Part shown: piece after piece, positions 3,785-45,886 of the stretch
Position numbering within the stretch: position 1 is the stretch's first letter
Layout of the letters: each line of letters begins with the position of its first letter
Assembly: GCF_025526975.1 (NCBI RefSeq)
Contig: NW_026515685.1
Location: 186,001-250,000 of the forward strand
Reading direction: 5' to 3'
DNA length: 64,000 bases
Source: Fimicolochytrium jonesii
Taxonomy: Eukaryota
Position numbers and translations under genes: made by a program
The notes under the pieces: model-generated
The model's database searches: none
Seen by the model: the letters and a program-made list of their open reading frames with translations, nothing else
Told to the model about the DNA's origin: nothing

Positions 3785-3785
<1 letters not shown>

Positions 3786-21279: not shown

Positions 21280-23731
21280 CTATGCTGTTTGTCTCCGTAT
21301 CCACAAAGATTGTGGGTGAGCTTTTTGCCATCGTTTGTAGGCAGGCGTGTAGCGAAGTGCGGATTCAGGTTCCCAAGTAGGGTCAGGATAACCGAGCCAT
21401 TTGACTAGAAGATTTCGTACGGCGGGTTGCTCGTCGATGATGTCTTCTACAACCCATTCGGGTTGTCCGCGTTCTTGGATTGGTGGAGGAGGTTGTGGAA
21501 CTGCACGTTGTGGGTATTGCTCTTCGTGATGTGGTCGTAAAATATCGACGTAAAAGATGGGCCAGATGCCGCTGATCTTCGATGGTGATAAATCAAGTTC
21601 GTAGGTATCAGGAAGTGCTCCCAGTGCGATGATTTTGAATGGTCCGATCCACGTAGCTGAGTATCGAAGTCCTCTTCGAGCGTCTCCTTCTAGGTTGATT
21701 CCTTGTCGATTCAGATCGACGAGGTCGCCAATTTTGTATGCGATTGGCGTTCGACCTTTGTCGTGTTGACGTGCGAGTTGATCTCGTGATCTCTGAAGGT
21801 TTTCGCGTACGATACGGGCGATGTCCTCCTGCCCTTTCTTGAAGAGTTCAATTTCGTTTCGATCTACAGCTTGAAGTTTGAGTTCTTGTCCTTCGAGTGT
21901 TGGATTCCAACCTGGGAGGATTGGAGAACGTCCGAGATCTACTTCGAATTGTGATAAACCTGCATATTCCTCCCTCGGAGCGGTGTTGTATGCGAATTCG
22001 ATTAAAGGCAATAGTTTCTTCCAATTGCTTTTGTCGTAGTTGAGATATTGCTTCCAAAGCCTTTCCAGGGTTTGGATGGCTCGCTCAACTTTGCCGTCGG
22101 TTTGCTGGTGACAAGCCGTAGTGAATTCGTGTTTTACGCTGAGGAGAATATCAAATGCGAGGAAGAAGTCGGAAAGTGCGCGAGGTTCGCGATCCGTAAC
22201 GAAGACTTTTGGCGTACCGACATGTTTCCAAACATGATCTAGAAAGACTTGGGCTAGTTTGCGTCCAGTAATTGTTTTCCTGATCGGTGTCAGAATCACA
22301 CGTCCGGAAAGGTAATCAGAGCAGACGAGACAAGAGTTTGTTTCATCTACTTTGAAAATGTCGAATCCGATTGTGTGCCATCTTCCAAAAGGTATAGGAA
22401 GAGGTTGAGAAATCCGTATCGACGATGACCAGGTTTGAATTGTCAACAGGATTTGCAAGTTCCAACGTATTTGATGACGTCGGAGCGTACGGTAGGCCAG
22501 TAATAGTCCGCAAGAATTCTCGCAAGAGTCTTCGTAACACCGAGATGTCCTCCGGTGGCGAGTTCGTCATGGAATTTCCGCAAAATCTTCGGGCGAATGT
22601 CTTCAGGAACGTATAGACGTCCTTCGTGTCGTACTAATCCATTTTCGAACGTATAACGGAGTTCTTTTGAAGTTTTCTCGTGTTGAGGCTTTCGAGAGAT
22701 TCCATTGAGATAATCCGAATATGGATCTTCGCATAGCGCTTTTTTCCATCCTTCTTCTGAGCAGGTAGGTGAGTTTTGTGGAACGTGTGTTGTGGCATTG
22801 GAGGAAGGTTCGTTGACAAGCATGTTGCTGATCTGCGTATGCATGTCGAGGCGTCGTTGACAATCTACACACCGAGGCGCATAGATTGGCTTGCGGGAGA
22901 GCATGTCGGCGATATGATTCCATTGTCCAGGTAAATACTGGATGTCGAAATCATACTCTTGTAGCTTCTCCACCCAATTGGCTTGTCTTCTGCTCAAATG
23001 GGGTTGCGTTTGGATGATTTCGAGTCCCTTGGCATCGCTAAAACATCGGAAGTAATGACCGATGAGATATGGTCGATTGGCGACCAACATCTTGACAAGA
23101 GCTAATAACTCCTGTTCGTGCGTAGGATATCGAGTTTCTGCATCCTTCATCTTTCTAGAAAAGAAGACCATAGGCCGGAGCCGAGGTCACTTCTTCCATT
23201 GTCCGACGAGAGTAGGCAGATTCGTAGGGATCGTTTCATCGCCAGATGGTTGTCCAATCCAGCCAGCGATAGCGTAGCCTGATGAGTCGGTATAGATGTA
23301 AATTGGCTTGGTTTCATCGATTGTTGCTAGCGTAGGCACATTGATCAACGCTTCTTTCAACTTTTGAAATGCCTCTTGATGCTCAGGACCCCATCGAAAT
23401 TTGACTTTTAAAGATTGAATACTTGATAGGGGCAGACCGATGTCCGAATAACCTTGTACGAAGTCGAGGAAATAGTTCGTGAACCCGAGAAAGCTTTGAA
23501 CTCCTTTTGTTGACTTTGGAGTAGCCCAATCCTTGATAGCTTGGATTTTCGAGGGCGCGATGCGAACTCCATGTCTTCCGACAATATGTCCACACCATTC
23601 GAGTTCTTCTTTAGCCCATACGCACTTTGAAGGCTTGATGAAAAGGGCATGTTCTTCAAGTTTTTTCAGGATACGATCGACGTGTCCCTGATGTTCGGCT
23701 AAGGTCTTCGAGAAAATGAAAATGTTGTCCA
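21280..23731 (-). pseudogene. Element C pol (RT C-terminus, RNase H, integrase, chromodomain), with frameshifts
   Basis: YTDSSGYAI, EQELLAL, GHLGVTKT..YYWP..C..C, QTDGKVER, EWVVEDII..LLVKWLGYPDPTWEP. Confidence 0.9.
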
Positions 23732-26700
23732 TGTTATGAATGGGCGGAGCCGATGGAAATAGAGGCGACTTGTGGTGCAGGTTGTTGACAGGTAATGGTA
23801 TTCAGACCGAAACAAGAACTAGAACAAGACTCGGAAGAACTGGTGTTGATGTGCTGGGGGATCAGGAAGTGGGGAGCTCAGGGGAGGCGGCTATTCATGT
23901 TTTTCTGGGAAGGCTGGGGAAGCGTGGGGAAGCAGAAGGGTACGGAATGAGAGGGAAGCCAAGAGAAGCGCCAAGGGTGGGGAAGTATGGAAACAGAAGA
24001 CTGGGGATGGGGTGGCTACGCTGAGGCTGTGGGCGGGTACGTGGGGAAGTATGGAGAAGGGTTTGTAAGCGCCGAGTGTTGGAAGGTGTGGCTACGTGCG
24101 GCTGCGTGGAGAAAATGAAGGCAGTGGCAGGTGTGGGGTAGCGCGGCTGCGTGCGGCTGCGAGTTTTGGCAGATGTCAGGTTTTGACAGGGAATTGACAT
24201 TGACTGACTGTTGGGATGCTGTCATGAGGTAAGCGCATGGTATGGACGCGTCGTCCATAACATCACCCCCTCCTTTAGCCACGGCGTCCGGATGTTGTTT
24301 TGATGTTGGCAGGCTTTGGTCGGGGTTTGTCGGGGTACTTTTGGTGGAACTGGGCGACAAGCTCTTGACATCGGGCAAGGTGTTCCACTGGCTCCCATGT
24401 GTTCTCCGAGCTTGGCCAACCCTGCCACTTGATGAGGTACTGAAGGTGCGTGCGTCGAATACGGGAGTCAAGAATGTCTTCCACAATCCATTCCTCCTGT
24501 CCTTCGACTTCTTCTGGTGGGGTGGGTTCTGGCTCAGTTCGCTCCGGAATGGTGAAACGTGGTTCAAGAAGGGAGACATGGAAGACGTTGTGAATTTTGT
24601 AGGATGGGGGAAGCTTGAGGCGATATGTGACCGAGTTGATCTTCTCCGTGATTGTGAAGGGGCCAATCTTACGGTGATCAAGTTTCTGGGAAGGTCGGAG
24701 AGTCTTGAGATTCCGCTGTAAGAGCCAGACACTGTCCCCGGGTTTCATGTCTGGGCCAGGTGCCCTCTTAGCATCGGCAAAGCGCTTCATGCGTCCTTGG
24801 GCCTCCTTGAGCTCAGTGGCAAGCTGTTCATGGATTTCCTTGAGATGGTTGGCACGAGCTTCGGCTGCAGGATTAAGGGATTCGGTTGTGGTGGCGGAAG
24901 CCAGACTGAATCGAGGATGGAACTCTAGTTGGCGTAGAAGGGGGTTGTCTGGGTGGCGGAGTGGATGGTGTTATTGTAAGAGAACTCAGCAGAAGACAAG
25001 AGTTCCTTCCAGTTATCTTGTTGATAGTTGCAAAAGCAGCGAAGATATTGCTCAAGAATCTGATTGGTCCGCTCGGTTTGTCCATCGCTCTGGGGATGGA
25101 ACGCCGATGAGAGGTTGACCTTGGTTCCCAGGATAGCAAAGAGACGTTTCCAGAAGTGGGAGTTGAACTGTGGGCCACGGTCAGATACAATATCGTCGGG
25201 GAGTCCATGGAGCCGGATGACATGGTGCCAGATCAGATCTGCAGTTGACTCAGCGGTGGCAGTTTTCCTGCACGGTACAAAGTGCGCCATCTTGGTGAAC
25301 CGGCAGATGACAACGAGCACAGAATCAACCCCATCACTGGCGGGTAGATCCGTGATGAAGTCCATGGAAATTGACCCCCAGGGGCGGTCAGGGACCTGCA
25401 GGGGTTGGAGGAGACCGTAGGGCTTGTGTCTGCTGGTCTTGTCTTGAGCACATACGTCGCAGGACCTGATGTAGGACTTGACAAAACGCCACTGGCTAGG
25501 CCACCAGTAGTTGCGTGAGATGAGCTCCAGGGTCTTTGACATGCCGTAGTGTCCTGCCAAACGCGTGTCATGCATGTCCCGGCAGATCTCAGCACGGAGC
25601 TTGTTGGTGGGGACGTAGACAAGGTTGTCGTACAGCAGAACCCCATTTTCCTCGGAGAATCGCTTTATCCGTTCTTGGTCTTCTTGAGATTGCTGGGCAA
25701 TGGGGGCCCTAAGCTGTCGCCGGATGGTTTGCGCAAACACATCGGATGCCAGGGCAGCTTTGATTTGGTCAAGGAGCGAGGAGTCTAGTGGGGTCAGATA
25801 AGTGGCGGCCAGGCGGAGATGGTCAGGGGTGAGGATCGTGGTTTCCTGGGAGCGGAATGCTTCTTCCCCCTCCCTTAGCTCGTATTCAGAGCGACGAGAG
25901 AGGGCGTCAGCTTGGTGTTGCTGGGTACCAGGGCGGTATGTGATGACAAAGTCAAAATCAGCAAAGAAGATTGACCAGCGGGATTGGCGGCGGTTGAGGG
26001 TACGGGTAGTCATGAAGTACTGGAGGTTCTTGTGGTCACAGTAAACGATGACCTTGTGGCGGGCACCAATGAGGTGGTGTCGCCATTGAGCAAATGAGTC
26101 TTGGATAGCCAGGAGTTCCTTGTCGTAGATCTCATAGTTGATTTCCTCAGGAGTAAATTTGCGGGAGTGAAAGGCCACGGGGTGGAGTTGATCTGTGTCA
26201 TCGGGTTGAAGGAGGACGGCGCCAAGGGCAAAGTCTGAGGCATCGGATTCGACAATGAAGGGCTTGTCAGGGTCGGAGTGAGTCAGGATAGGTGCGGAGG
26301 TGAAGGCTTTCTTGAGGGTTTCAAAAGCTAGGTGTGCAGCGTGGGTCCATTTGAATGGCAAGTCTTTGCGAGTGAGCGTGGCCAGGGGTGCAACGATCGC
26401 AGAGTACCCTTTGATGAATCGCCGGTAGAAGTTGGCAAAACCAAGGAAGCGCTGGATGCCTTTGACATTCGTCGGGGGTTCCCATTCGGTAATGGCAGCC
26501 GTCTTCTTTGGGTCCATGGAAATGCCTTGCTGGGAGATGATAAACCCCAGGAACTCAACAGAGTCACGGTTGAATTCGCATTTTTCCGGTTTTGCATACA
26601 GCCCGTGCTGGCGGAGTCGTGAGAGCACCTCTCGGACGTGGTTGGGGTGGTCTTCTGGGTTTTTTGAGAAGATCAGAATGTCGTCAAGGTAGACCACAAC

Positions 26701-29610
26701 AAAAACGTCGAGAATGTCACGGAATATGTCGTTCATGAGGTGTTGGAATACTCCAGGGGCATTGGTGAGCCCAAACGGCATGACATTATACTCGAATAGG
26801 CCGTAGCGACATCGGAACGCTGTCTTCCATTCATCCCCTGGCCGGATCCGAAGAAGGTTGTAGGCTCCCCGGAGGTCAATCTTGGTGAGCCGGCGTGCCC
26901 CTTGAAGACGATCCATGATGCTGTTAATCAAGGGCAAGGGATAGCGATTCTTGATGGTGATATTGTTGAGTCCACGATAGTCGACGCACAGACGGAGGGA
27001 ACCGTCCTTTTTCTTGACAAAGAGGACTGGGGCACCGGCGGGAGACTTGGAGTGCTTGATGAACCCCTTAGCTAGGTTCTCTTCAAGGTAGTCACAGAGT
27101 GCCTGCATTTCAGGCTCACTGAGACTATAGATCGGGCCGAACGGTGGCTGTTTGCCCTCTTCTAAGTCGATGGGACAGTCGTAGGGTCGGTGCTCTGGGA
27201 GGGTATCCGCGTTCTTCTTGGCGAAGACGTCCGCAAAATCTTGGTATTCTTCAGGAATGATGGCCTTCGGATCTTTTGGAGGAGTGGTCGCCAGGGCTTG
27301 GGAATCTGACTTGGTCGGATTGGCGTAGGCAATGAATGCCTGGTCATGCCTTGCCGCCACACGGAAAGCTGGGGCGCTGATAAACGATACGTGGATCGGT
27401 GTGGGTGCTGGGTCCAGTGTGTTGGGTGTCTGGGCTAGGGAGACTGAAATCTCGTCTTGATGGATACGGATCAGAGGTTCAGGGGTTCTTGAGGGCTTCG
27501 GGCTAGGTTCTGTTGGCAGGGCATCCCAGGAGGCGTATTGTCCAAAACCGCAATGGCGGCGGACGCAAAGAGTGCGAGTCTTCCAATGTAGCTCCACATC
27601 ATGGAGCTCAAACCAGGGAAGCCCCAGGATGATTGGCGCATGCGGGGAACATGTCACATGGAATACCACTTCCTCAAAATGGTCGTTGACCCACATGCCC
27701 AAAGGTTGGGTGGGATGGGTAATGGAGCCCGCATGGCTGGGACGTCCGTCAACCAGTTCAAGCGCAATGGGGTCCTCCTTCTTGACAAGTGGGATGCGGT
27801 GCTTGCGGGCATAACTTTCGTCGATGAAGCACGACATCGCACCGGTGTCGAGTAGTGCTGAAAGCTGAACTGGAGCTCGCTGGGCCGATATCTGCAGGGT
27901 AACAGGGTACTCGAATGGTGAGGATGGGCCCAAAGTCCGCATGGGTGAGGGTATCTCAGATAGGAGATTGACATTGTTGGTGGTCAGGAGAAGGGTGTTG
28001 CTGGAGATGCCAGGATCGGAGCAAGGTTTTGTGGCTTCTCCCTTGGCAGTACTTGCGTGGTGAGAAGGCCCAGGACAGGTGTTGCCCAGCTGCTCGGCCT
28101 TTACTGCAGCTGGACTTCGGCAAAATCCTGGATAGGGTGCAGGTTCCTTAACCGCGACATTCGCCGTGCGTATCTTGTTCAGGGCAGAGTTTGGCTATGT
28201 GGCCGGGTTTACCACAGTAGAGGCAAAGTTTGTTTGTGATGCGGTGTTGGCGCTCTAGCGGTGTGAGGGGTCCTCGCGGACGAGCAGCGTCAATGATCAT
28301 AGGGTCGTCTGGGCGGTTGTCGGGGCTCATGAGGGTGGGGCTAGTGGTAACTGGCACATATGGCTGTCGGTTCCTGCTTCGCTCTAGACGGCGCTCAAAC
28401 AATCGGTTGTCACATTGGATGGCCTGTTCCATCACGGTGTCGATTGAGGCGGTAGGGGGCATCGTGAGCATTAAGTCCTTGACGTCTTCTTTGAGGCCGC
28501 GACGGAAGGTGGCAATCAATGCCTGGTCATTCCACGACACATCGCATTGCAGCTGTCAGAATTCAGCTACATACTCTGTTGCTGCACGGGTTTGTCGAAG
28601 GTTCTGGAGCTTGTTTTCGGACGTACGGATCCTGTCGCTGTCTCCAAAGACTGCTTGCATTTGCTGGATGAAATCATCCAGGTTCATAAGGGAATGATGG
28701 TCTTGTTCGACAAGGGGTGCCAGCCAGGCCTGGGCGGTGCCAGTGAGGTAGGTGCCAATAGTTCGTATCTTGGTCTGATCGTTGGGGTAGCGCCTGGGTT
28801 GGAGGGCGAACATGAGCCGGATCTGGTTGAGGAACCCACGGAACTTGCTTCGGGTGCCATCAAATTTGTCTGGGAGACTGATTTTGGGTTCGGGGGCGTG
28901 GGTGGCAGGGGCAGTGGTCTGGGTTTGCGCTAGTTCGGCTTGTAGGGTGGTATTCTGCGCTCGAAGTTCGTCAATCGCATTGCACATGGCTTGCCAGGCT
29001 TCGGCCGTGAGGGGAAGGGCGTCGGACATGGTGATTTGGCGTGGAGGTACAGCGGCTGGGGGTTGTTGAGCAGATCAAACTGTTATGAATGGGCGGAGCC
29101 GATGGAAATAGAGGCGACTTGTGGTGCAGGTTGTTGACAGGTAATGGTATTCAGCCCGAAACAAGAACTAGAACAAGACTAGGAAGAACTGGTGTTGATC
29201 TGCTGGGGGATCAGGAAGTGGGGAGCTCAGGGGAGGCGGCTATTTATGTTTTTCTGGGAAGGCTGGGGAAGCGTGGGGAAGCAGAAGGGTACGGAATGAG
29301 AGGGAAGCCAAGAGAAGCGCCAAGGGTGGGGAAGTATGGAAACAGAAGACTGGGGATGGGGTGGCTACGCTGAGGCTGTGGGCGGGTACGTGGGGAAGTA
29401 TGGAGAAGGGTTTGTAAGCGCCGAGTGTTGGAAGGTGTGGCTACGTGCGGCTGCGTGGAGAAATGAAGGCAGTGGCAGGTGTGGGGTAGCGCGGCTGCGT
29501 GCGGCTGCGAGTTTTGGCAGATGTCAGGTTTTGACAGGGAATTGACATTGACTGACTGTTGGGATGCTGTCATGAGGTAAGCGCATGGTATGGACGCGTC
29601 GTCCATAACA
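23732..29610 (-). mobile_element. Near full-length Ty3/Gypsy chromovirus 'A'; LTRs 23732-24262 and 29081-29610
   Basis: Near-identical ~530-bp LTRs with TGTTATG..CATAACA ends; PPT from 24263; gag 29029-28148 (internal TGA, CCHC knuckle); pol with LDTGA, YLDD, RNase H, integrase and chromodomain. Confidence 0.95.
24275..27942 (-). pseudogene. Element A pol (PR-RT-RH-IN-chromodomain), 1-nt frameshift near 24925
   Basis: The 1005-aa ORF continues in another frame into ORF 24275-24790, which has EEWIVEDILDSR..YLIKWQGW..NTWEP. Confidence 0.92.
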
Positions 29611-30639
29611 ATGAGCGGCTTCGAGCTCATTATTGGTGTCTTGAAACTCCTTGATATATTTCTCAAGAGAGTCACCAAGCTTGAGATTGGATTACTTGAG
29701 CTCAATAGTATTACGCAAGTTGCGAGGATAAAAGGGAGCGACAAGAGCCGTTTCAAAAGCTGCCCGATTTGCGGGAGGTCCAGTGGCGTAAGTTGTATTG
29801 TACCACTCGAGAGCAGTACCGTTGAGGTAGGTAGTGAGCGTAGAGGCGTACTCTGCCATAGTAAAGGCTATGGCGTTGGCAGCTCCAGTGCTGTCTGTTC
29901 CAGCTGTTGCAGCCGGGACAGTGAGAGAGTCGAGAAAGTTGTGGTGAGACGTAACGAACTCTTCGATCTTTTTGGCAGCTTTGGCGCCATTGTATTCCAC
30001 AGGCTTGTTCTTGCGAGCGTCCATAAGAAGTTTGAAACGTTCGGCTCGTTGGCCGTCTTGCGTAACAGCACGCTGCTGACTAGCGAAAGCAGCTGCGACA
30101 GCTGCAACGAGAGCTTGAGTCTGTGCGTCCATTCTTGCTTGTGAACGAGGGTAAGGGCGACGTCCGATAGAGGGACGACGTTGACGAGGAATGTCTTGGT
30201 GATGCTAGCGGTAGGTGGTGCTACCATGTAATGTCAGGGGAACTTAGCAGTAGTCGGCAGAGGAAGCAGATGACGGAGCGAACTCTATGTTGTGTGAGAT
30301 GAAGTACTGACGAGTCTGTATTGTCTTATTGTAGGAAAGAGGACGCTAGGTCCGAAAGGAGAAGAAAAGAGTGAAGTCCCGCACGCGGAAGCGTGGCGTA
30401 AGCGGGAGGGGAGTCACGTGAGGAAATAAACTACAGGAACCCTAACCGGGGACTCGGGAGGATGAAACCTCCAACACCCCCACCCAAACTCACGAGTCTA
30501 TCTAAGTGAAAGATAAATCTAAACAATGAGTACAATGGTGCGGCCGTACGCAAAAAGCGGGCGGACGTCGGGTGAATAGCTATGACTAAAAATAAAAGAA
30601 ATGAAAGAGTAAAATGAAAGAAGAGGGAAACGCCGCGAG

Positions 30640-30646
30640 TATAAAA
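30640..30646 (+). promoter_or_regulatory. Putative TATA box (TATAAAA) for the antisense ORF of K
   Basis: Lies ~93 nt upstream of ATG 30739 and is conserved in all three K copies. Confidence 0.5.
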
Positions 30647-30738
30647 CAAGAGACAGCTGTCAGTCGCCCCAGAGAGATAAGATCAACGTTGACATACTCA
30701 ACTACCGTATCCCAGATGACCACACGATACGCGAAACA

Positions 30739-31392
30739 ATGGCGAACGGAGGCAAGAACGGCGGGAGTGGCAAGAAGAGCGGCGACGGCAAGAAGAAGCA
30801 AACAGCCCGTAAGTCGGGGACGCCAGCAGCCCCTCCAGCTGCACCCCCGCTGGGACCCTCATGACCGACGACGCGCTCTACGCGCGCATCGTCCGCAGCG
30901 TCTGCAAGCGACTCTTCGATGTCAAAAGCCCAAGTGAGAGAAGCTCTTCGATTGGCGACGGAGGTGGCGACGTTGAGGTACCGGAAGGATAACTATGAGA
31001 ACCTCGCGAAGCACCTGGCGTTTACGAAGGCGAAGCTGGATCGATCGAAGCGAAAGAAGGGGTCGTTCGAGGCATTGACGGAGGAGGCAGACTACGTTGG
31101 GTGTAAGGCAGTCTCGGAGTTGCAATATAAAGGAAAAGGCGGCATATCGAAAGAAAAGATGAAAGAGGCGAAGCGCCGCAGTGATGCGGCCGAGGGACGG
31201 GAGCGAGACAAGTTGATGAAGCGACTCATGTACTTGCGAAAGCACATGGATGATTTGTCTTCGAGTGATGATGGAGACGGTGACGGAAACCGCGGGGGAG
31301 GTGGTCCAGGGGGTCCGCCTGGTGAAGGCGGAGCCGGAGCCGGTGGAGCCTCCAGTGCCGGGGCAGCGGCGGCTATCACAGTGGCGGGTTAA
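30739..31392 (+). pseudogene. Antisense accessory ORF of Copia K (217 codons) with histone H3-tail motif KQTARKS; premature TGA at 30862
   Basis: MANGGKNGGSGKKSGDGKKKQTARKSGTPAAP... is in frame with ORF 30919-31392; the TGA codon is CGA in copy 2. Confidence 0.8.
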
Positions 31393-31450
31393 GGTGCCGA
31401 AGTCGTATATAGTGCCCAGAAGCCGTCCCGGTATGGGTGTTCCGTATGTC

Positions 31451-34400
31451 TCATTCGGACGTAGTCGTTGCCGGCCGTATATTGCTAGCGACACGCCCTT
31501 CTTGAATTGCTTGAATACTTTTTGTATGTGTCTCGGGAGGAAAGGGCTTTGTGAAGTAATCATCCAGTTGTTCCTGGGTTGCGGTGTCGAGGAGTACGAC
31601 GTCTTTCTTCGCCACGCCGTCACGTAGCTTGTGGTAGCGTATGTCGATGTGTTTGGAGCGTTGAGTAATAGCCGTGGAGTTGGCAATCTCGCGGGCGCTC
31701 TGATTGTCGATGTGGAGTGGCGTGGGGTCCTTGATGTTGCCGTATTCGTCGCCGAAGACCTCCGCGATGATCGAGCGGAGGCAGATGACCTCGTTGTAAC
31801 CGAGGGCTGCGGCAATATACTCAGCTTCCGTGGAGCTGAGAGCTACGCACTTCTGCTTGGTGCTTTTCCAGTAGATAAGCTGGCCGTTGAAGAAGCTGGT
31901 GATGCCCGCGGTAGATTTGCGGTCGTTGACATCGTCTGCGTAGGATGCGTCTGTATAGACGCGAAGTCCAGCTTGATCTGAATGCCCGGACTTGTAGGTA
32001 AGCTCGAAGGTGCGGGTACCTTTAAGGTAGCCGTGATGCGAAGTACATCATTCCAGTGGGCTTGAATAGGAGCTGAGACTTGACGTGCGACGAAGCCAAC
32101 GGCAGTTGAAATATCCCAGCGCCAGGTAATGGATGCCCACGTGAGGGCCCCCACTGCTTCCTGGTAGAGAAGCTTGTTAGGAAAAGGGGGGCTTGCGGAG
32201 GTTGGTCGGTTACGCGCAGAGACGGCACACGGCGTAAAGACCCGGGTAGCATTTTGTTGTCCAAATTGTTTGAGTAAACCGTCGATATGGGTAGCATTGC
32301 TGATTTTAAGTTGGTTCCCTGACGGCGAGAGCTGGTAATCGAAGACCAGACCCAGGCAGTTCTTGATGGGACCGAGATCCGTACAGTTGAAATGAGAACA
32401 TAGTTCACCTTTCACTTGTTTGGCGTGTACGGGAAAGCAGCAGGCGATGAAGTCGTCCACATAAATAAGGAGCATCTGGAGGGCGTCCAGAGTGCGCGTC
32501 GTGCTTGCGTAGCGATAGAAGACGCAAGGGCAGTTCTTTAACGGAGTAAAGCCGAGAGAACTGAGGGTTTCGCAAAGAGTACGGTACCAGAGAAGCGGAG
32601 ACTGCTTCAGACCGTATAGAGCCTTGTGTAAGAGGTATACCCAGTCTGCGCGCGGCTTTTGCGGATCTTTGTAGCCTTGAAATTGTTCAACATAGACGGG
32701 TCCGTCGATATCGCTGCGTTTGAACGCATTGAGGACGTCTAGTTGATGGATATCCATACCGAGAGAGATGGCAATGGAGAGGAAAAGGCTAAGAACTGAC
32801 ATGGGTAGGGTTGGAGCGTAGGTGTCGTGATAATCAATACCCTTGGAATGACGAAAACCTTGAACTACACCGCGGCCCTTGAATTTCTTGAAAGTACCGT
32901 TTGGATTGAAGATTTGACAAAGTACCCAAGTACTACCGAGTATGCGCTGATTGCGCGGACGGGGTACGAGCTCCCAAGTCCCGTTATCAACTAGAGCCTG
33001 GAACTCTTTATCAGCTGCGAGCTTGAAGTCAGCTGATTGAGGGGAGGCCATCGCTTGTCGCCAGGTCATAGTGACGGATTGAGGCGTGTCTTCAGTACGC
33101 GCGTTGAAGGCGTTCGAGAAGGCTTCAATGGTTCGGGCGTTGAAAGCGGCTGGATGAGACTCCCAGATATCCAACTCTTCAGTCTCAATGAGATCAGAGC
33201 GTGGTTGCCAGGTAGGGGTAGTAAAACCAACCCACTTGACGAGGTATTCCTTTCGGACGTTCTTGCCGCGGCGCTGATGTTCAGAAAGGATGTGTTCCAA
33301 AGGGAACTCCTCTTGCGAGGTGGGAGCATCTTCTAGAAGATCTAGGAGAGCAGGATCTTGACGAAGGTGCTCAGGGAGTCCAGTAGATTCGTCGAAACAA
33401 ACATCACGTGAAACGGCGACAGTGTCGCGAACTGGATCCCAGACATAGTAACCTTTGGTGCCTTGTTGGTGAGCATAGCCCACTAGGTACGTCTTGGTAG
33501 TACGATTTGCCATCTTGTCCCAGCCCTTGGGTGGAACGACAGTGTACGTGAGACATCCGAGCTTGCGCCGATGCGCGATGCTCGGGCGGCGACCGGTAAG
33601 GAATTCGGAGCAAGATTTAGCATCCGGGGATGCAATTGAATGCGGGTAGAGGTTGTGCAGGTAAAAGACAGCTTCCAGGATGTATGGCCAGAGCTTGCGG
33701 GGTAGGTGAGTGTCCGCGAAGATGGCGCGTTGTAGTATTGCACTTTGAACTGCGCATGAAATTGATAATATTTCAACGCTGATTATACGCCTAGAATCTT
33801 TGGCAAGCGAATGAAATCACCTTTATATGACAACGTCAAAATACCGTCAAAACTTCCGACAATAAATCGACACACTCGCGTTCCCAACACTCTGACAATT
33901 ACCAAATACAACTACCTTTACCGAAACCTTGCTTCACAGCGACGTTTTGTCCTTGGATATGACTGACATGCGAAAAATGTAGGCGTAGGAGAGGATCACA
34001 CACATGAAAGCACCCCCGACCCGATCCTCAACCAACCAGAAGCTCCCACGCCGCCCGAAACGCTGAAGAAATCACCTGCGAAACGAGAAAACCAATTTTC
34101 GGTGGCCGTATACGCCAAACGTTGCAGAAAACCCCGAGAAAAGATTAGCGATAAGACCGTATCAGTGCCGAAATTGCGAATGGAAAAAGGAAAAACTACA
34201 TAGACGGCTGCAGGAAAAGAGAAAAAGACCCCAAAGTAGCTAATCCTCTAGACACGACTAGTAGAGAGTTTGGACTTCGACAAAATCCTGTAGCCTAGAA
34301 AAATCCATATAAAAACCCGCTTGTTTCCCCCAGACCTTTGTACGATACGCAGAACACAGATCCCGATCAACAACAGAGCTTTCAACTTCTCTACTCCCGA

Positions 34401-36829
34401 CGACTTCTTTCAGTTTCAGATAGACTTCAAGGCGCGCTCATAGCCCCGGAGAGCTTAGATAAGACGACCTCGAGTGTCGCGACTTGTACTTTGCTGACGT
34501 CGCCAAGGACTTGATAGTTCAGGAATCTTGTAAGAAGAGCTGAGAGTGAGATTGGATAACCCCATTGTTTTGTTTTGTAGTCAACCCCGCAGATATTCCC
34601 GAATTCGTATTTTGTACCCCTACCCGTAATTCCCGACCCCGTATTAGAAGAGGATCCTTTCAAAGCACCTGGATTTTAAGGTGGCAAGACGACGCCCTCG
34701 CTCGAGATCTCTTCTTGTGCTATTGAGAGACCGGCAGCTTATTTTTCCCGACACCCAACCGTAACCCCGTTTTCGACAGACCCTTGCTTCTGCCGGCCAC
34801 CACCACAGCGTACGCGGTCCAGCAACGTCCGATCGAGGCGGTCTGCTTTTCCGTTTTGTTGACTAGAATACGCAACAGTAGACTCATGGGTAATCCCGTT
34901 GTCGTGTAGGTACGACGTGAGCTCGCCAGTGTATTCTCCTCCCCTATCCGTACATAGGATCTTGAGGGAGACGCCAGTTTGATTCTTGAGCCACTTATGA
35001 AAGATCATAAACCTTGCGGTGATGGTGGATGCCTCCTTGTCCTTGATGGAGTAGGTACGGGCGAAATCGCAGCCGTCGTCGAGGAACACGAGACCGTAGC
35101 GCTCTCCGTCGATGCCGTGGATCCGAAATGGACCTTGTAAATCGCTGTGAATCAGCTTGCCGGGTTTGTGTGGCGGGGATGTCAATTTAGGTTAGGTAAG
35201 GCGGGTAGCTTTGCCGAAAGCGCATGGATTGCAGCGTGCGCCAGAGTCTGGCGTAGCCCCCACTGAAGACCAATCCTCTCCTATCTTAGGCATAACCTGG
35301 AGAATGTGGTTTCCAGGGTGTCCAAGACGTTGATGCAGAAATTAGGGGGTTATGGAAGCGACCAGTGCATGTGCATTGGGCTTGTAGGTAGTAACCCGTC
35401 CTTCTAAGTAGTATGCGTCGCCTTCGCGCATCCTCATCGCGAGTAAGTGTCGGTCGGTATTGAACGTGACGACGTCGGTGGGGTGAAAGGAGACGGTAAC
35501 GCCGTTATCAGTGCATTTAGCAACAGATATAAGCGGCTGGGCAAGACTAGGAACCAATAACACGTCGCGAAGAGCGAGAACGTTGCCGCCGGACGTAGGT
35601 TGGATAAGTTCGGTACCCTTCTTTTGAGAGGTAATGGTAGTCGAATCCGCGAGTCCAATAAGGCGTTGGTAGTCTTGGAGAGAAGATTGATCTAGATCCT
35701 CGATATAAGGGGTCATATAATCTGTACAACCAGAATCCACGTTTGCCTTGAAGAGGCGGACGTCGTGGTTGGCTGGTTGGACTTGAACGTGCATGGCATA
35801 AGCCATGGAGGCTGCAGCGGGTGCGTCCTGCTTAGTTTGCGCGTTCTTGTCCATGATATCCTTGACAGCTTTGTAAGTAAAGCAGTTTTCTGACTTGTGG
35901 CCTTCCCGTTGGCAGTATTTTGACTGGGGAGGTTTCTTGGGTGCGTCAGAAGACGAGGATTGGGTAGAGGAGGAGCCTCTAGAGCCGCCAGTCTTGGATT
36001 TGTTCTTCTTCGTCTGAGGTAGAGGGGAAGTAACGTGGGCAGCGGATGCGCCCGACTGAGGCGTACTCGGGGTCTTCTCGTTGAACTGGGCGGCTATACG
36101 AATCGCGGCTTCTTGAGAAGGACTAAGTCTATCATTGTACTGAGCATGAGCAGTGATCAGGGTACTGTGATTATTAGGAAGGGCTTGAAGGAAGTCGGCA
36201 CAGACCACGTATTCCGGGAGCCCGGGGAGTTGTCCAGCAAAAGGTTGAACTGGGCGACGAATTCGGTTAAACCTTGATGGTTAATTGACTTGGGCTTCGG
36301 AGCGCGCAGTCTGTGAAGAACTTGCGGCGGATGAGTCCGGGGAATGAAGCGCCGTAACATCGCGGAGCGTAATCCGAGTTGCGGGCGCAGTCCATAGGTG
36401 TCTTGAATATCGTGCCATGAAATTATGCAGAAGCGCTCGTTTTCAGGAAAGCTTTTTTACATATGGCGTGGTTGCGTCTTTCCACTCTGCAATAGTAGCA
36501 GAAAGTTCCTCCTTCCTCTTCTTCTCATCCACAAATCCACCAGGCATTTTGTAAGGCGGGGTAGGTGTTGGTTCACTGCGTAAGTCGGCATGACGGGCTA
36601 CGCCTTGATTGAGCGGAGTAGGTGAGTCAATGCTGGAGCGCTGATTAATAGATTCAGAACTCTTAACAGCTTGTTGTTGAACTTTCTTTCCTCCTCCTCT
36701 AGTAGCCGCAGGTAGGGGTCCCAGGAAAGCTCCTCCTTGGGACCGCATGTGGTGAGCGGAGGGCTTGCCGGCTGTCACTGCAGCTGCGGAGCCCTTCTGA
36801 GGTTGGGTTGTTGAATCCTTAGGTGGCAT
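31451..36829 (-). pseudogene. Copia K1 gag-pol with an integrase-associated chromodomain (~33160-33312); stops, frameshifts and an insertion in integrase
   Basis: YCQREGHKSENC, LHQRLGHP, HSDLQGP, TDRGGEY, YVDD, YTDASYA, EAEYIA motifs. Confidence 0.9.
33731..34807. mobile_element. Probable solo LTR (~1.08 kb, unknown family) inserted in K1 integrase
   Basis: TGTAGT..ACCACA termini, 4-bp duplication GCGT; splits RTLLDRVR|AIFADTHLP. Confidence 0.75.
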
Positions 36830-37411
36830 GGTGCTTTCTAAGAGAGCGGTGGCTGGAGCGAGTTCTTTATCCTGGAACGTCCGCTAGTTGCGGGCAAAGC
36901 CAGGGCTCATAACCTCTTAGCAGTAGTTGGCAGAGGATGCAGATGACTGAGCGAACTCTATGTTGTGTGAGCTGTAGTACTGTGAAGTATGTATTGTCTT
37001 ATTGTAGAAAAGAGGACGCTAGGTCCGAAAGGAGAAGAAAAGAGTGAAGTCCCGCACGCGGAAGCGTGGCGTAAGCGGGAGGGGAGTTACGTGAGGAAAT
37101 AAACTACAGGAACCCTAACCGGGGACTCGGGAGGATGATACCTCCAACACCCCCACCCAAACTCACGAGTCTATCTAAGTGAAAGATAAATCTAAACAAT
37201 GAGTACAAGGGTGCGGCCGTACGCAAAAAGCGGGCGGACGTCGGGTGAATAGCTATGACTAAAAATAAAAGAAATGAAAGAGTAAAATGAAAGAAGAGGG
37301 GAACGCCGCGAGTATAAAACAAGAGACAGCTGTCAGTCGCCCCAGAGAGGTAATACCAACGTTGACATACTCAATTACCGTATCCCAGACGACCACACGA
37401 TACGCAAAACA

Positions 37412-40400
37412 ATGGCCAACGGAGGCAAGAACGGCGGGAGTGGCAAGAAGAGCGGCGACGGCAAGAAGAAGCAAACGGCCCGTAAGTCGGGGACGCCAGC
37501 AGCCCCTCCAGCTGCACCCCCGCCGGGACCCTCACGACCGACGACGCGCTCTACGCGCGCATCGTCCGCAGCGTCTGCAAGCGACTCTTCGATGTCGAAA
37601 GCCCGAGTGAGAGAAGCTCGTCGATAGGCGATGGAGGTGGTGTTATGATCTCGACGACGGGGGCGGAAGCGAAGTAGAGAAGACAGGGCGAGTGTGATAG
37701 GCGACAAGAGACTGTATTGGCGAAACAAGAAACAAGGACTAGAACAGGAGATGAGAAGAACTGGTGTTGATCTGCTGGGGAGGAAGGGAATGGACGAAGA
37801 GTGGCCGGCTATTTATAGATAGGCAACCCAGCAGATCAGAGAACAACAACAACAAGAGGGGACTGGAGGGCGACAGCTATGCTCCTAGAGCGTGCGTGGC
37901 GAGCGTAGAGAGCATTGCTACAGCTGCTGGCTATGGGGAAGCAGTGGGGGGTGTGGAGAAGCCGAGGAGGGTTTGGCGAAATGAGAGGAGAGAGGAGGAG
38001 TGGCGATATTGCAAGAGGATTGGCGAAATGAGAGGAGAGAGGGGGAGTGGCATTGACATTGACATTGACACTGACATTGACACTGACATTGACATTGACA
38101 TTGGCGTTTGACATTTGGCGGTTGACATTGGCGGCTGTCAGTAGGTAAGCTTATGGTATGGGCGCGTTGTCCATTGGCAGCTGTCAGTAGGTAAGCTTAT
38201 GGTATGGGCGCGTCGTCCATAACATCACCCCTCTCTTTAGCGGCCGTGGCGGCGGCGTCGAGTTTGGTGTGGCCGCAGAGGAGGCGCTACGGGGACAGAG
38301 GAAGGCTTGTTGGGGTACGCGCTGTGGAAGTCCTGGAGGAGTGTGTCGGTATGGGTGAGGTGTTCCACGGGCTCCCAGGTGTTCTCGGAGTCAGGCCAGC
38401 CCTGCCATTTGACCAAGTACTAAAGGCGACGACAATGGATGCGAGAGTCAAGGATGGCTTCGACAACCCACTCTTCTTGACCCTCAACGGTCTCTGGGGG
38501 CGCAGGTTCGGGTTCGGGTCGTTCGGGGATGGTGAAGCGGGGTTCGAGGAGCGAGACATGGAAGACATCCTGGATTTTGTACGTAGGCGGCAGCTTGAGC
38601 CGGTAGGCAACGGGATTGATTTTTTCAACGATGGGGAATGGCCCAATCTTGCGATGGTCGAGTTTCTGAGAGGGCCGGGTTGTCTGGAGGTTTTTGCAGA
38701 GGAGCCAGACGTGGTCGCCAGGCTTGAAGTCCGGTCCAGGAATTCGTTTAGCGTCGGCGTAGCGCTTCATTTGATCTTGGGCTTCCTTGAGCTCGAGGGC
38801 GAGCTGTTTATGGCCTTCCCTGATTTGTTTAGCGTGGGCTTCAGCGGCGGGGTTGACGGATTCGGAGCTAGCAGAGGCCGCGAAACTGAAGCGGGGGTGG
38901 AGACCCTTGTTGGCGTAGAAGGGGGTGGTCTGGGAGGCGGACTGGTGGGTGTTGTTGTAGGCGAACTCGGCAGACGACAGAAGCTGTTTCCAGTTGTCCT
39001 GTTGGTGGTTGCAAAAGCATCGGAGATACTGCTCCAGGATCTGGTTGGTGCGTTCCGTCTGGCCATCGCTCTGGGGGTGGAAGGCCGAGGAGAGGTTGGC
39101 TTTTGCCCCAAGGAGTTCGAGAAGTCGACGCCAGAACCGGGACTTAAACTGGGGTCCTCGGTCAGAGATGACGTCGTCGGGGAGGCCGTGGAGACGGATA
39201 ATGTTGTGGAAGACTAGGTCGGCGGTGGATTCGGCGGATTCTGACTCGCTGCAGGCGATGAAGTGGGCCATCTTGGTGAGGCGACAGTTGACGTTCAGGA
39301 TGGAGTCGTACCCGTCCACGGGAGGCAGACCGGTGATAAAGTCCAGGGACCAAGATCCCCAAGGGCGGGTAGGGATACTGTTGGGCTGAAGTAGGCCATA
39401 TGGTTTTTGTCAACTGGATTTCGCTTGGCTACAAGTATCGCAGGACTTGACGTAGGCCTTGACGAAGCGCCACTGGTTGGGCCACCAGTAGTTGCGGGAG
39501 GCAAGTTCGAGCGTCTTGGACATCCCAAAGTGGCCAGCCAGGGATGTATTGTGCATGTCGTGGCAGACTTCAGCTCGGAGCTCGTTGGTGGGGACATAGA
39601 CCAGGTTATCGTGCAGCAGGATCCCATCTTCATCTGAGAACCGCTTGATACGATCTTGGGTTTCCTCGGTCCATTGGGCGAGGGGTATCTTGAGCTTTTC
39701 GCGAAGGGTCTTAGCGAGGGGATCAGAGGCCTGGGCGGCCTTAATCTTGTCAAGCAGCGTGGTATCCATGGGTGTGAGGTAGGCCGCGGCGAGTCGAAGG
39801 CGTTTGGGAGTCAAAATTGTGGTTGCCTGGGAGCGGAACGCTTCTTCCCCCTTTTTTAGCTCATGTTCGGAGCGTCGGGAGAGGGCATCGGCTTGGTGCT
39901 GCTGGGAACCGGGGCGATAGGTAATGACAAAGTCAAAATCCGAGAAGAATATCGACCAGCGGGCTTGGCGGCGGTTCAGGGTGCAGGTGGTCATGAAGTA
40001 CTGAAGGTTTTTATGGTCGGAGTAAACGGTGATCTTGTGACGGGCGCCAATGAGATGGTGTCGCCACTGGGCAAAGGAGTCTTGGATGGCCAGAAGTTCC
40101 TTGTCGTAGAGCTCGTAGTTGATCTCTTCGGCCGTGAATTTGCGAGAGTGGAAGGACCACGGGGTGGAGCTGATTGTCCTGGTCAGGTTGGAGGAGAACT
40201 GCGCCAAGAGCGAAGTCGGAGGTGTCAGTTTCGACGACGAAGGGCTTCTCTGGGTCAGGGTGAGCAAGGATGGGGGCGGTGGTGAATGCTTTCTTCAGGT
40301 TCTCGAAGGCGGTGTTTGCGGCGGGTGTCCAGGCGTACGGGATGTCTTTCCGGGTCAGGGCTGTGAGCGGGGTAGCGATCTTGGAATAACCTTGGATGAA

Positions 40401-43400
40401 TCGGCGATAGAAGTTGGCAAAGCCGAGGAAGCGCTGGACGCCTTTGACATTCTTGGGAGGTTCCCAATCCTGTGATGGCAGCGATCTTCTTGGGGTCCAT
40501 CTGGATGCCTTTCTCGGAGATGATGAAGCTAGGAACTCGACAGATTCGCGGTTGAATTCGCACTTCTCGGGTTTGGCGTACAACCCATGCTGGCGGAGGC
40601 GGGACAAGACTTCGTGGACGTGCTTGGGGTGATCTTAGGGGTTCTTGGAGAATATCAGGATACCATCAAGGTAGACGACAACAAACACATCGAGAATGTC
40701 GCGGAAGATGTCGTTCATCAGGTACTGGAAAACGCCAGGAGCATTGCTGAGTCCAAAGGGCATGACATTGTATTCGAATAGGCCGTAGCGGCAGCGGAAG
40801 GCGGTCTTCCATTCATCGCCCAGGCGCATGCGTAAGAGGTTGTAAGCGCCGCACAGGTCGATCTTGGTGAGACGGCGGGCACCGCGCAAAGGATCCATGA
40901 TACCGTTGATCAGGGGCAGGGGGTAGCGATTCTTCACCGTGATGCTGTTCAGGCCTCAATAATCCACGCAGAGGCGGAGAGAACCGTCCTTTTTCTTCAC
41001 GAATAAGACTGGCGCACCGGCAGGGGACTTTGAGGGTTTGATGAATCCTTTGGCGAGGTTTTCTTCGAGGTATTCGCAGAGTGCCTTCATATCTGGTTCG
41101 CTGAGGCTGTAGATCGGGCTGAAAGGTGGCTGCTTGCCTTCCTCCAGATCGATTGGACAGTCGTAGGGCCGGTGCTCGGGGAGAGTGTCAGCATTTCTCT
41201 TTTTGAAAACGTCGGCGAAGTCTTGATACTCGGGGGGCAGGAAGTCTTTGATGTCTTTCTCGGGTGTCGGGGGGTTACTAGGGCTAGGCAAGGCCGGGAG
41301 ATCGGGTTTCGCAGGGTTGGCGTAGGCGACAAAGACCTGGTCATGCCTTGCTGCGACCCGGAAGGCTGGGGCGGAGATGAACGAGACTCGGAGCGGCGTG
41401 GGAGCCGGTTCTGGGGTGCTGGAGCGAGATACCTTGGGTACTGGAATCGACCATGTTTTGTCGACGGGGACTTCATCCTGGGGGATGCGGATCAAGGGCT
41501 CGGGGGTTCTGGCAGGTGCTGGGCTCGGGGGTGCTGGGTAGTAGTCCCAATTCGCGAATTCATGGTACTGACAGTCGCAACGGAAACCGACCGAAAGGTT
41601 CTTGAACTCAAGGTTAATGTCGTGGAGGCGGAGCCAGGGGAGACCAAGGAGGATTGGAGCATGGGGTGATTTGGTGACATGGAAGACGAGTTCTTCGAAG
41701 TGGTCGTCAACCCACATGCCTACTGGTTGGGTGTGATGGGTGATTGGCCCAGCAGAGCTGGGTTGACCGTCAACGAGTTCGATCGTCAGTGGACGCTGAT
41801 GCGGGACTAGGGCGATGCGGTGTTTGCGGGCAAAGTCTCTGTCGATGAAGCAGGACAGGGCACCGTTGCCGATCATGGCTGAGGTAGGTATCGGGGCGCG
41901 GCTGGATGATACCATGATGGTAACGGGGTAGTTGAAGGGTTCGACGGGACCCAGCGCAAGCATGGCGCGGGGGTTAATTTCGGAGTTTTCGACATGGGCA
42001 GCGGCTAGGAGGGTTGTGTCGGCTATAACGGAGTCGGGAACCAGGGGGGTGGCCTCTCCTGTTGCAGGAGCTGCGAGGTTAGGAGGCCCGGGGCGGTGTG
42101 TGTTGTCCAGTCGCTGGGGCTTTACTGCGGCTGGACTTTGGGAAAACCCTGTTCGGTGGAGGGTTCTTTGATGTCGACGTTGGCGGCACGGGTGGTGGTC
42201 TTGTTCTTGACGGGGCAGACTTTTGCAATGTGCCCCGCGCCACCCCAGTAAAGGCCAGAGGTTGTTGGAAATGCGGCGTTGGCGTTCCTGAAGGGCTCAG
42301 AGGGCCGCGGGGACGAGCGGCGTCAATCTGCATAGGCTCGCTGTGGTCGACAGTGGTGGTAGTAGTAAACGAGGTGTGGGGAACCGGGAAGGTCTGGCGG
42401 CTTCTGTTTCGCTGCAGGCGGCGCTCAAACAGCCGGTTATCGCACTGGATAGCCTGCTCCATCACCACATCAATGGTGGCCGCAGGGGGCATTGTGAGCA
42501 TCAGGTCTTTGACGTCTTCTTTGAGGCCACGGCGGAAGGTAGCAATCAGGGCCTGGTCGTTCCAGGAGACATCGCATTGTAGCTGGCGGAACTCAGCGAC
42601 GTACTCGGTTGCTGCACGGGTTTGGCGAAGGTTCTGGAGCTTGTTTTCAGAGGTGCGGACCCTGTCGCTGTCTCCGAAGACCGATTGCATCTGACTGATG
42701 AAGATATTGAAGTCCTGAAGGCTGTGATCTTAACGTTCGACTAGGGGCGCCATCCGGGCTTGCGCAGTGCCGGTGAGGTAGGTGCCAATAGTTTGGATCT
42801 TGATGATGTCGCTGGGGTAGCGGTCGGGCTGGAGAGCAAACATCAACCGGATGTTGTTCAACCACCCACGGAATTTGCTGCGGGTACCATCAAACTTCTC
42901 GGGCGAGCTGATTCTTGGCTCCAGAGCAGGGTTGGCGACTTGGGGACGGGTGAACGTATCAGCTTGAACCTGGGCGGCGATGCTCTGGGCAGCTTGTGCG
43001 TCGGCTTGGGCTTGCGCTAGGTTGGCCTGCAAGTTGGCGTTTTGGCTTTGCAAGGCGGCGATGGCTTGGCACATATCGTTCCATTGCTTCGCAGTGAAAG
43101 GTACGGATTCGGGTTGGGACATGGCGAAAAAGGTTTGTCGGATGCAGGGCTGGACAGGTTCTGAACTTCGCAGTGTTAGAGCAGATCAAACTGTTATGAT
43201 CTCGACGACGGGGGCGGAAGCGAAGTAGAGAAAACAGGGCGAGTGTGACAGGCGACAAGAGATTGTATTGGCGAAACAAGAAACAAGGACTAGAACAGGA
43301 GATGAGAAGAACTGGTGTTGATCTGCTGGGGAGGAAGGGAATGGACGAAGAGAGGCCGGCTATTTATAGATAGGCAACCCAGCACATCAGAGAACAACAA

Positions 43401-44159
43401 CAACAAGAGGGGACTGGAGGGCGACAGCTATGCTCCTAGAGCGTGCGTGGCGAGCGTAGAGAGCATTGCTACAGCTGCTGGCTATGGGGAAGCAGTGGGG
43501 GGTGTGGAGAAGCCGAGGGGGGATTGGCGAAATGAGAGGAGAGAGGAGGAGTGGCGATATTGCAAGAGGATTGGCAAAATGAGAGGAGAGAGGGGGAGTG
43601 GAATTGACATTGACATTGACACTGACATTGACACTGACATTGACATTGACATTGGTGTTTGACGTTTGGCGGTTGACATTGGCGGCTGTCAGTAGGTAAG
43701 CTTATGGTATGGGCGCGTCGTCCATAACAGGTGGCAACGTTGAGGTACCGGAAGGATAACCATGAGAACCTCGCGAAGCACCTGGCGTTTACGAAGGCGA
43801 AGCTGGATCGATCGAAGCGAAAGAAGGGGTCATTCGAGGCATTGACGGAGGAGGCAGACTACGTTGGGAGTAAGGCAGTCTCGGAGTTGCGATATAAAGG
43901 AAAAGGCGGCATATCAAAAAAAAAGATGAAAGAGGCGAAGCGCCGCAGTGATGCGGCCGAGAGACGGGAGCGAGACAAGTTGATGAAGCGACTCATGTAC
44001 TTGCGAAAGCACATGGATGATTCGTCTTCGAGTGATGATGGAGACGGTGACAGAACTGGCAGGGGAGGTGGTCCAGGGGGTCCGCCTGGTGAAGGCGGAG
44101 CCGGAGCCGGTGGAGCCTCCAGTGCCGGGGCAGCGGCGGCTATCACAGTGGCGGGTTAA
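37412..44159 (+). pseudogene. Antisense H3-mimic ORF of K2 (37412-37640 + 43735-44159), split by B1
   Basis: KQTARKS at 37469-37489; TTG>TAG at 37625; the frame resumes after the GGTGG TSD. Confidence 0.8.
37641..43729 (-). mobile_element. Full-length defective Ty3/Gypsy chromovirus B1; LTRs 37641-38224 and 43192-43729
   Basis: TSD GGTGG on both sides; gag-PR-RT-RH-IN-chromodomain remnants; (GACATT)n tract in the LTR. Confidence 0.95.
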
Positions 44160-45886
44160 GGTGCCGAAGTCGTATATAGTGCCCAGAAGCCGTCCCGGTA
44201 TGGGTGTTCCGTATGTCTCATTCGGACGTAGTCGTCGCCGGCCGTATATTGCTAGCGACACGCCCTTCTTGAATTGCTTGAATACTTTTTGTATGTGTCT
44301 CGGGAGGAAAGGGCTTTGTGAAGTAATCAGTGAGTTGTTCCTGGGTCGCGGTGTCGAGGAGTACGACGTCTTTCTTCGCCACGCCGTCACGTAGCTTGTG
44401 GTAGCGTACGTCGATGTGTTTGGAGCGTTGAGTAATAGCCGTGGAGTTGGCAATCTCGCGGGCGCTCTGATTGTCGATGTGGATTGGCGTGGGGTCCTTG
44501 ATGTTGCCGTATTTGTCGCCAAAGACCTCCGCGATGATCGAGCGGAGCCAGATGACCTCGTTGTAACCGAGGGCTGCGGCAATATACTCAGCTTCCGTGG
44601 AGCTGAGAGCTACGCACTTCTGCTTGGTGCTTTTCCAGTAGATAAGCTGGCCGTTGAAGAAGCTGGCGATGCTCGCGGTAGATTTGCGGTCGTTGACATT
44701 GTCTGCGTAGGATGCGTCTGTATAGACGCGAAGTCCAGCTTGATCTGAATGACCGGACTTGTAGGTAAGCTCGAAGGTGCGGGTACCTTTAAGGTAGCGC
44801 ATGATGCGAAGTACATCATTCCAGTGGGCTTGAATAGGAGCTGAGACTTGACGTGCGACGAAGCCGACGGCAGTTGAAATATCCCAGCGCCAGGTACTGG
44901 ATGCCCACGTGAGGGCCCTCACTGCTTCCTGGTAGAGAAGCTTGTTAGGAAAAGGGGGGCTTGCGGAGGCTGGTCGGGTACGCGCAGAGACGGCGCACGG
45001 CGTAGAGAGCGGGGTGGCATTTTGTTGTCCAAATCGTTCGAGTAAACCGTCGATATAGTTAACATTGCTGATTTTGAGTTGGTTCCCTGACGGCGAGAGC
45101 TGGTAATCGAAGACCAGACCCAGGCAGTTCTTGATGGGATCGAGATCCGTACAGTTGAAATGAGAACATAGTTCACCTTTCACTTGTTTGACGTGTACGG
45201 GAAAGCTGCAGGCAATGAAGTCGTCCACATAAATAAGGAGCATCTGGAGAGCGTCCAGAGTGCGCGTCGTTGTCGCGTAGCCATAGAAGACGCAAGGGCA
45301 GTTCTTTAACGGAGTATAGCCAAGAGAACTGAGGGTTTCGCAAAGAGTACGGTACCAGAGAAGCGGAGACTGCTTCAGACCGTATAGAGCCTTGCGTAAG
45401 AGGTATACCCAGTCTGCGCGCGGCTTGTGCGGATCTTTGTAGCCTTGAAATTGTTCAACATAGACGGGTCCGTCGATATCGCTGCGTTAGAACGCATTGA
45501 GGACGTTGAGTTGATGGATATCCATACCGAGAGAGACGGCAATGGAGAGGAAAAGGCGAAGAACTGACATGGGTAGGGTTGGAGCGTAGGTGTCGTGATA
45601 ATCAATACCCTTGGATTGACGAAAACCTTGAACTACACTGCGGCCCTTGAATTTCTTGAAAGTACCGTTTGGATTGAAGATCTGACGAATCACCCAAGTA
45701 CTACCGAGTACGCGCTGATTGCGCCGATGCGCGATGCTTGGGCGGCAACCGGTAAGGCATTCGGAGCGAGATTTAGCATCCGGGGATTCAATTGAATGCG
45801 GGTAGAGGTTGTGCAGGTAAAAGACAGCTTCCAGGATGTATGGCCAGAGCTTGCGGGGTAGGTGAGTGTCCGCGAAGATGGCGCGG

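Follow-up and report, generated by a model that had tools for sequence, protein, structure and literature searches.

Does the Ty1/Copia retrotransposon at this locus encode a genuine chromodomain within its polyprotein and, if it does, from where was the domain acquired and what would it have done for the element? The window, i.e., the whole stretch of 64,000 nucleotides of Fimicolochytrium jonesii DNA that was analysed, contains a cluster of LTR retrotransposons nested in one another. The Copia element in this cluster is present as an array of three tandem units, the first of which (unit 1) harbours the domain in question. The features of cluster and array are as follows (positions in the window):

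19600..62800, minus strand: nested LTR retrotransposon cluster of 43 kb with seven chromodomains, six of Gypsy type and that of the Copia element, each encoded on the minus strand
30243..30478, minus strand: 3' LTR of unit 1, 236 bases, beginning with TGTTG and ending with CTAAG instead of CA
30479-30487: polypurine tract, adjoining the 3' LTR of unit 1
30739..31392, plus strand: antisense open reading frame (ORF), 217 codons long and situated between pol and the 3' LTR/polypurine tract
31522..32026, minus strand: RNase H, out of the reverse transcriptase (RT) frame in unit 1 only, with a one-base loss near 32031
32227..32985, minus strand: Copia-type RT core (RVT_2, PF07727, E 6e-42), with the chromodomain in the same frame
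33156..33312, minus strand: chromodomain of group I type, with cage residues F, W, F, a three-residue short loop and TWQ replacing TWE
33382..33597, minus strand: SH3-like domain of the integrase C-terminus (SH3_retrovirus, PF25597, E 2e-17), with the chromodomain in the same frame
33731..34807, no strand assigned: non-coding, solo-LTR-like insert of about 1,077 bases that splits the integrase and is common to unit 2
34849..35164, minus strand: first part of the integrase core (Pfam rve, E 1.5e-6), upstream of RT as in the Copia order
35501..35740, minus strand: protease region (Pol_BBD, E 4e-11)
36040..36620, minus strand: gag, broken by frameshifts, with the same breaks in unit 2
36903-36914: primer-binding site GGTTATGAGCCC, the same site occurring in relatives L003 and L007
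36916..37151, minus strand: LTR common to units 1 and 2
37152..49603, minus strand: unit 2, with a deletion of about 600 bases comprising SH3, chromodomain and RT start
49604..52375, minus strand: third LTR, with a partial duplication, and unit 3, truncated inside RT, short of the chromodomain

The affiliation of the element with Ty1/Copia is indicated by the order protease, integrase, RT, RNase H, by an RT of the RVT_2 type, and by LTRs accompanied by a primer-binding site and a polypurine tract. The arrangement of Ty3/Gypsy chromoviruses, a Gypsy RT and an integrase behind RNase H, was not found, as the RT matches RVT_2 and the integrase precedes it. All three LTR copies end with CTAAG rather than CA, and no target-site duplication of the Copia array was readable. 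A repeat of 725 bases was also considered as the LTR but rejected, since it consists of the 236-base LTR and internal sequence common to the tandem units. The primer-binding site GGTTATGAGCCC is, we assume, a match to an internal part of initiator tRNA-Met. Together with the motif YVDD it sets the element apart from the fungal GalEa and FunCo1 elements, of which GalEa is described as having no primer-binding site, a hairpin site and the motif QTDD, and FunCo1 as having the primer-binding site ATTAAGAGTCT (available sections of PMC5445492).

The polyprotein is not intact: the integrase is split by the insert, gag is broken, and RNase H is frameshifted. The insert has TGT...ACA ends and a 4-base flanking repeat, and has no further match within the window besides the copy in unit 2. 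The broken gag matched a capsid profile of chromodomain-bearing relatives weakly (E 0.06). The three units are arranged head to tail with common LTRs (30243-52375) and are 96–98% identical. All of them are dead. Units 1 and 2 have the gag frameshifts and the 1,077-base integrase insert in common, the RT differences between units are near neutral (29 at 697 replacement sites and 11 at 209 silent sites), and the array was amplified after inactivation. Only unit 1 retained the chromodomain; the deletion in unit 2 shows a 6-base microhomology. Unit 2 was further interrupted by a Gypsy element (37641-43728), inserted within its antisense ORF, and contains a Gypsy solo LTR at 48287-48804. On the other side of unit 1, positions 29611-30242 comprise a gag-like frame that is present in a single copy and belongs to another element, together with the primer-site-like motif TGGTAGCA, and the Copia array seems to sit inside the LTR of that element, 16 bases from its end.

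The peptide quoted in the preliminary description of this DNA is the translation of 33160-33312 on the minus strand, and its location between the integrase SH3-like domain and RT was confirmed, as a single stop-free frame (31846-33816) holds all three. Of the checks that had been proposed, the search with the Pfam model gave a match to Chromo (22 bits, E 1.6e-4), but with a score under the curated cut-off of 25.1. Another, structure prediction, agreed with the proposal: AlphaFold2, run with a nine-row alignment, returned three strands and a helix with a pLDDT of about 75–82. When this model was compared with known structures by Foldseek, chromodomains mostly ranked at the top (probability 1.0, rmsd about 2 Å over 52–56 columns), at E values of 2e-3 to 6e-2 and thus with no match at E 0.001. 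A profile of 46 Copia chromodomains, from which the window's own was excluded, scored the domain at 42 bits (E 1.9e-14), its members having been recovered with queries that contained the window, and 57 of the 58 PDB sequence matches at E<=1 were chromodomain proteins (best E 5e-5). In the definition of group I chromodomains the cage consists of Y24, W45 and Y48 (available text of PMC3350952). All three cage aromatics claimed for the window domain are present, F, W and F falling on the cage positions of CDYL in HMMER alignments to PDB sequences. The alignment to solved chromodomains also revealed the chromo-box motif, YLVKWVG, and the group I fold of three strands capped by a helix is seen in the predicted model, for which Foldseek E values exceed 0.001. 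The TWE motif of retrotransposon chromodomains, described as extremely conserved (PMC3350952, as far as its available text goes), reads TWQ in the window copy. This Q (E in 40 of the 46 relatives) is one of four departures outside the cage, the others being L (V or I in 42), D (N or H in 35) and E (A in 35). They may be decay or family traits, and because of them binding by the window copy may be weak or lacking altogether. The chromodomain in this Copia element is real.

A one-off insertion, which the preliminary description had named as a finding that would speak against it, was not found, since a chromodomain occupies the same place in 46 divergent Copia proteins (the set after removal of two near-duplicates). 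Among the 120 best long homologues, Pfam Chromo was detected between SH3 and RT in eight, all of them Copia polyproteins. When a profile of the SH3-chromodomain-RT region was searched against 1.84 billion proteins, a chromodomain was located beside Copia SH3 or the RT start in 41 of the 152 proteins examined, 38 of these 41 being new clusters; Pfam Chromo was verified in 16 of 18 relatives tested. F, Y or W occupies all three cage sites in 38 of the 46 relatives, and eight are without a full cage. The chytrid Powellomyces hirtus is the source of two chromodomain-bearing Copia proteins, P0226 and P0208. A region search that started from P0004 gave four matches. Scans at the locus level covered two viral, the best 80 of 109 metagenome and five genome loci, and among the loci listed only in L003, L004, L007 and the distant L014 and L027 does a chromodomain precede a Copia-type RT. 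In L014 and L027 (positions 1-9700), which are distant Copia-like elements arranged in tandem, about 300 residues separate the chromodomain from the RT behind it, and pol is followed by a 199-codon ORF on the sense strand. In L007 (936-2984), gag runs almost directly into chromodomain and RT, protease and integrase apparently being missing.

Pol trees were calculated from the INT, SH3, RT and RH columns, the chromodomain columns being left out. In a tree of 72 rows (30 with chromodomain, 41 without, and the window; short fragments and most matches without chromodomain excluded), the window was sister to P0171 (47% identity) within a clade of 18 chromodomain-bearing rows with a support of 100. 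IQ-TREE analysis of 38 rows resulted in the same placement and needed three trait changes, at least two of which are forced by strong branches. P0171 is the carrier of the nearest chromodomain by tree path, too, and has the short loop as well. Since the pol trees nest the window among bearers, the chromodomain was inherited in this Copia lineage, and since they need repeated trait changes, Copia gained or lost the domain more than once. As the rows were picked by a chromodomain-containing profile, clade members without the domain would be missed and losses are under-counted.

The preliminary description had also stated that chromodomains are not a standard feature of Copia. None is mentioned in the available parts of reports on fungal or plant Copia (PMC3248453, PMC5445492, PMC6317226), but the combination is not unprecedented, because a putative chromodomain was described for the CoDi-A/CoDi-I Copia elements of the diatom Phaeodactylum tricornutum (PMC2774666, PMC5348765). 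By their published description, as far as available, these elements resemble the present one in their Copia domain order and in the chromodomain at the integrase C-terminus; they differ in having a diatom rather than a fungal host and were placed by their authors on a branch with GalEA. A report of a chromodomain in fungal Copia was not found in the literature searched, which lies mostly outside the subscription journals, and the combination is probably unreported in fungi. MAGGY and Tcn1, which are group I chromoviruses, share with the window element the chromo-box, the three cage aromatics and the position behind an SH3-like integrase domain, but in chromoviruses the chromodomain ends the polyprotein, whereas in the window element it lies within the polyprotein and is followed by a Copia RT of the RVT_2 type (available sections of PMC3350952, PMC6317226). 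Comparable gains of chromatin-reading domains by LTR elements are the arthropod CopiaMBD (PMC6673714) and the oomycete Chronos (PMC5348765), although, according to the accessible text, the former has a methyl-CpG domain and the latter a Gypsy backbone.

How the domain came to be in this element can be weighed against these data. A one-off insertion or a chance resemblance in a dead element would fit the Pfam Chromo score under the cut-off and the presence of the domain in one of three units. However, the deletion in unit 2 also took SH3 and the RT start, unit 3 ends before the domain, and the 46 relatives with a chromodomain at the same place already refute this reading, to which we assign next to no probability. 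Convergent capture, as had been put forward in the preliminary description, was not borne out: the closest chromodomains by identity are from the Gypsy-type loci L006 (48%) and L005 (45%), and the chromodomain tree is poorly supported, with 4 strong branches of 61. Given these identities and the weakly supported tree, acquisition through recombination with a fungal Gypsy chromovirus, perhaps along with a Ty3-type capsid, instead of capture from a host gene, is an alternative for which we see an even chance. L006 and L005 have the short loop and a C-terminal LDxWE motif like the window domain, but they were fetched with patterns from a window-containing alignment and are hence a biased sample. 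Of the 120 best long homologues, all eight chromodomain bearers contain PF03732 and none PF14223, PF03732 being found in only two of the 112 others; P0233 and P0272, however, have a Copia-type gag. More generally, chromodomain-bearing Copia proteins mostly match the Ty3-type capsid (PF03732, PF19259) and are without the Copia gag PF14223, a pattern seen in P0004, P0006, P0009, P0012, P0014, P0020, P0052, P0071 and others, P0233 and P0272 as the exceptions being members of a separate group. This capsid pattern suggests that chromodomain-bearing Copia may be of chimeric origin. A recent local transfer is excluded by the low identity (25–39%) of the Gypsy chromodomains within the window. Transfer from a chromovirus and capture from the host are equally likely.

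The genomic setting bears on what the chromodomain may have done. Between units, 27 of 46, 26 of 36 and 29 of 45 transitions lie in CpG, in comparisons that have unit 1 in common, vs. about 29% expected; this share, about twice the expected one, is as for methylated DNA. Nearly all elements of the cluster are on one strand, with a strong GC skew, and the cluster is possibly a centromere or another heterochromatin block. One of its Gypsy integrases (21283-22566, minus strand) has a short-loop chromodomain that resembles the Copia one but is only 36% identical. Adjoining the cluster is a frame of 768 codons with ubiquitin-conjugating (E2-like) and F-box-like domains (16559-18862, minus strand), and the genic part of the window contains a Spa2-like gene with VBS_C3G9, GIT_SHD and GIT1_C domains.

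The MAGGY chromodomain binds H3K9me2/3 and its loss reduces transposition (available text of PMC3350952). On account of this precedent and of the surrounding CpG-mutated chromovirus cluster, we infer targeting to H3K9-methylated chromatin. Protease cleavage would leave the chromodomain on the integrase, the F/W/F cage would bind H3K9me2/3 as in MAGGY and HP1, and the pre-integration complex would be tethered to silent, repeat-rich chromatin. The locus holds a decayed fungal Copia element of a deep lineage, and its integrase-borne chromodomain probably bound methylated H3K9 and so steered insertions into heterochromatin. The setting in a chromovirus cluster fits such targeting, but selection alone can explain it, because dead repeats also accumulate in heterochromatin by selection, and the tandem array, being a single insertion, counts as one locus only in this regard.

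The preliminary description had coupled the chromodomain with a second component, the antisense ORF, as a reader and a mimic of H3K9 encoded by one element. The motif KQTARKS, which corresponds to histone H3 residues 4-10, is indeed present at residues 20-26 of the predicted protein (30796-30816, plus strand) and in both other units, so that an ARKS-type motif occurs in a non-histone ORF. It is expected 3e-5 times in the six frames of the element and 2e-6 times in the ORF's own composition, values that take no account of its after-the-fact choice across a very large scan. A TATA-like sequence is located at 30640, ahead of the ORF. In units 1 and 3 the frame is interrupted by a stop at codon 42. 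Unit 2 reads through at this codon, but its frame is broken by a stop elsewhere and by the Gypsy insertion. The length of the ORF by itself does not reach significance (96 of 1000 simulations), the frame was not singled out by a codon-usage score, and a single-sequence model of the protein consists of long helices with low confidence (pLDDT 56). No homologues were found in JGI metagenome contigs, the ESM Atlas and Pfam, nor in a set of 5.8 billion proteins at 119–380 residues. Differences between units amount to 16 replacement and 5 silent ones, and there is no selection signal because the units diverged after death. A co-occurrence of chromodomain and antisense ORF was not seen in the readable relatives: the stretch from pol to the LTR measures about 970 bases here vs. 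about 285 in L003 and 25 in L007, and neither of these two distant relatives, the only ones read from the end of pol to the LTR, has such an ORF. The pairing is therefore not lineage-wide, and the antisense ORF most likely represents an accessory gene that is specific to this family and does not belong to the design of the whole lineage. Opposite-strand ORFs between pol and the 3' LTR, of unknown function, are also described for Retand, Grande and RIRE2. Unlike the present element, these are Gypsy elements of plants and have a TRP28 domain, and the main text of the report as available does not contain the word 'histone' (PMC11963269).

Two further roles have to be weighed against targeting. 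The chromodomain may serve another job, such as recognition of a different mark (e.g., H3K27me), binding of nucleic acid or tuning of the integrase, and not target choice. Besides HP1, Polycomb CBX and CDYL domains are among the best matches to PDB sequences, the Tf1 chromodomain modulates integrase activity instead (available sections of PMC3350952), and a full cage is lacking in eight of 46 relatives; brown-algal elements outside centromeres also have intact chromodomains (10.64898/2025.12.07.692804, as far as available). Retention of the cage in the other 38 relatives and the location of the element among chromoviruses in CpG-mutated DNA argue against another job, which we consider rather unlikely; heterochromatin targeting is the likeliest role of the domain. 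Alternatively, the antisense protein might have been made and the KQTARKS lysine methylated by the host H3K9 methyltransferase, so that it acted as a decoy for this enzyme or for HP1, or bound to the chromodomain of the element itself and thereby timed or regulated integration. Such a function would be consistent with the exact seven-residue H3 match, rarely expected by chance, near the start of the sole long ATG frame in the 970-base 3' region, and with the TATA-like sequence ahead of the ORF in all three units. It would also have parallels in the antisense 3' ORFs of Retand, Grande and RIRE2 (PMC11963269, in part) and in ARKS-type mimics methylated in host proteins (available text of PMC10611923). 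However, the ORF is broken in all three units, its length is non-significant, homologues and a selection signal were not found, and neither the two readable relatives nor any of the loci and proteins retrieved contain it. Moreover, the motif was singled out post hoc in a very large scan, and ARKS arises by chance in tails rich in K and G, as in ribosomal L15; for a viral protein, the ARKS mimic claim has been disputed (PMC10833455). A methylated mimic of this kind is unlikely. Similarly doubtful is the full scenario of one Copia family that combined an H3K9me reader on its integrase with an antisense protein carrying an H3K9 site, obtained capsid and chromodomain from chromoviruses, and homed to heterochromatin while soaking up or redirecting silencing enzymes. 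A report of an H3-tail mimic in an LTR element was not found in the literature searched, again mostly outside subscription journals, and if the antisense protein were a working H3K9 mimic, it would represent a counter-silencing mechanism of a retrotransposon, none such having been found there.

For the Copia superfamily, the chromodomain itself is of wider relevance. It serves as a marker of Gypsy chromoviruses, and the diatom CoDi-A was the sole Copia exception found in the literature searched. Dozens of divergent chromodomain-bearing Copia elements in two or three groups, with members in chytrids and other fungi, indicate that the design is old and widespread, and they provide a natural set for asking if a reader domain determines insertion sites.
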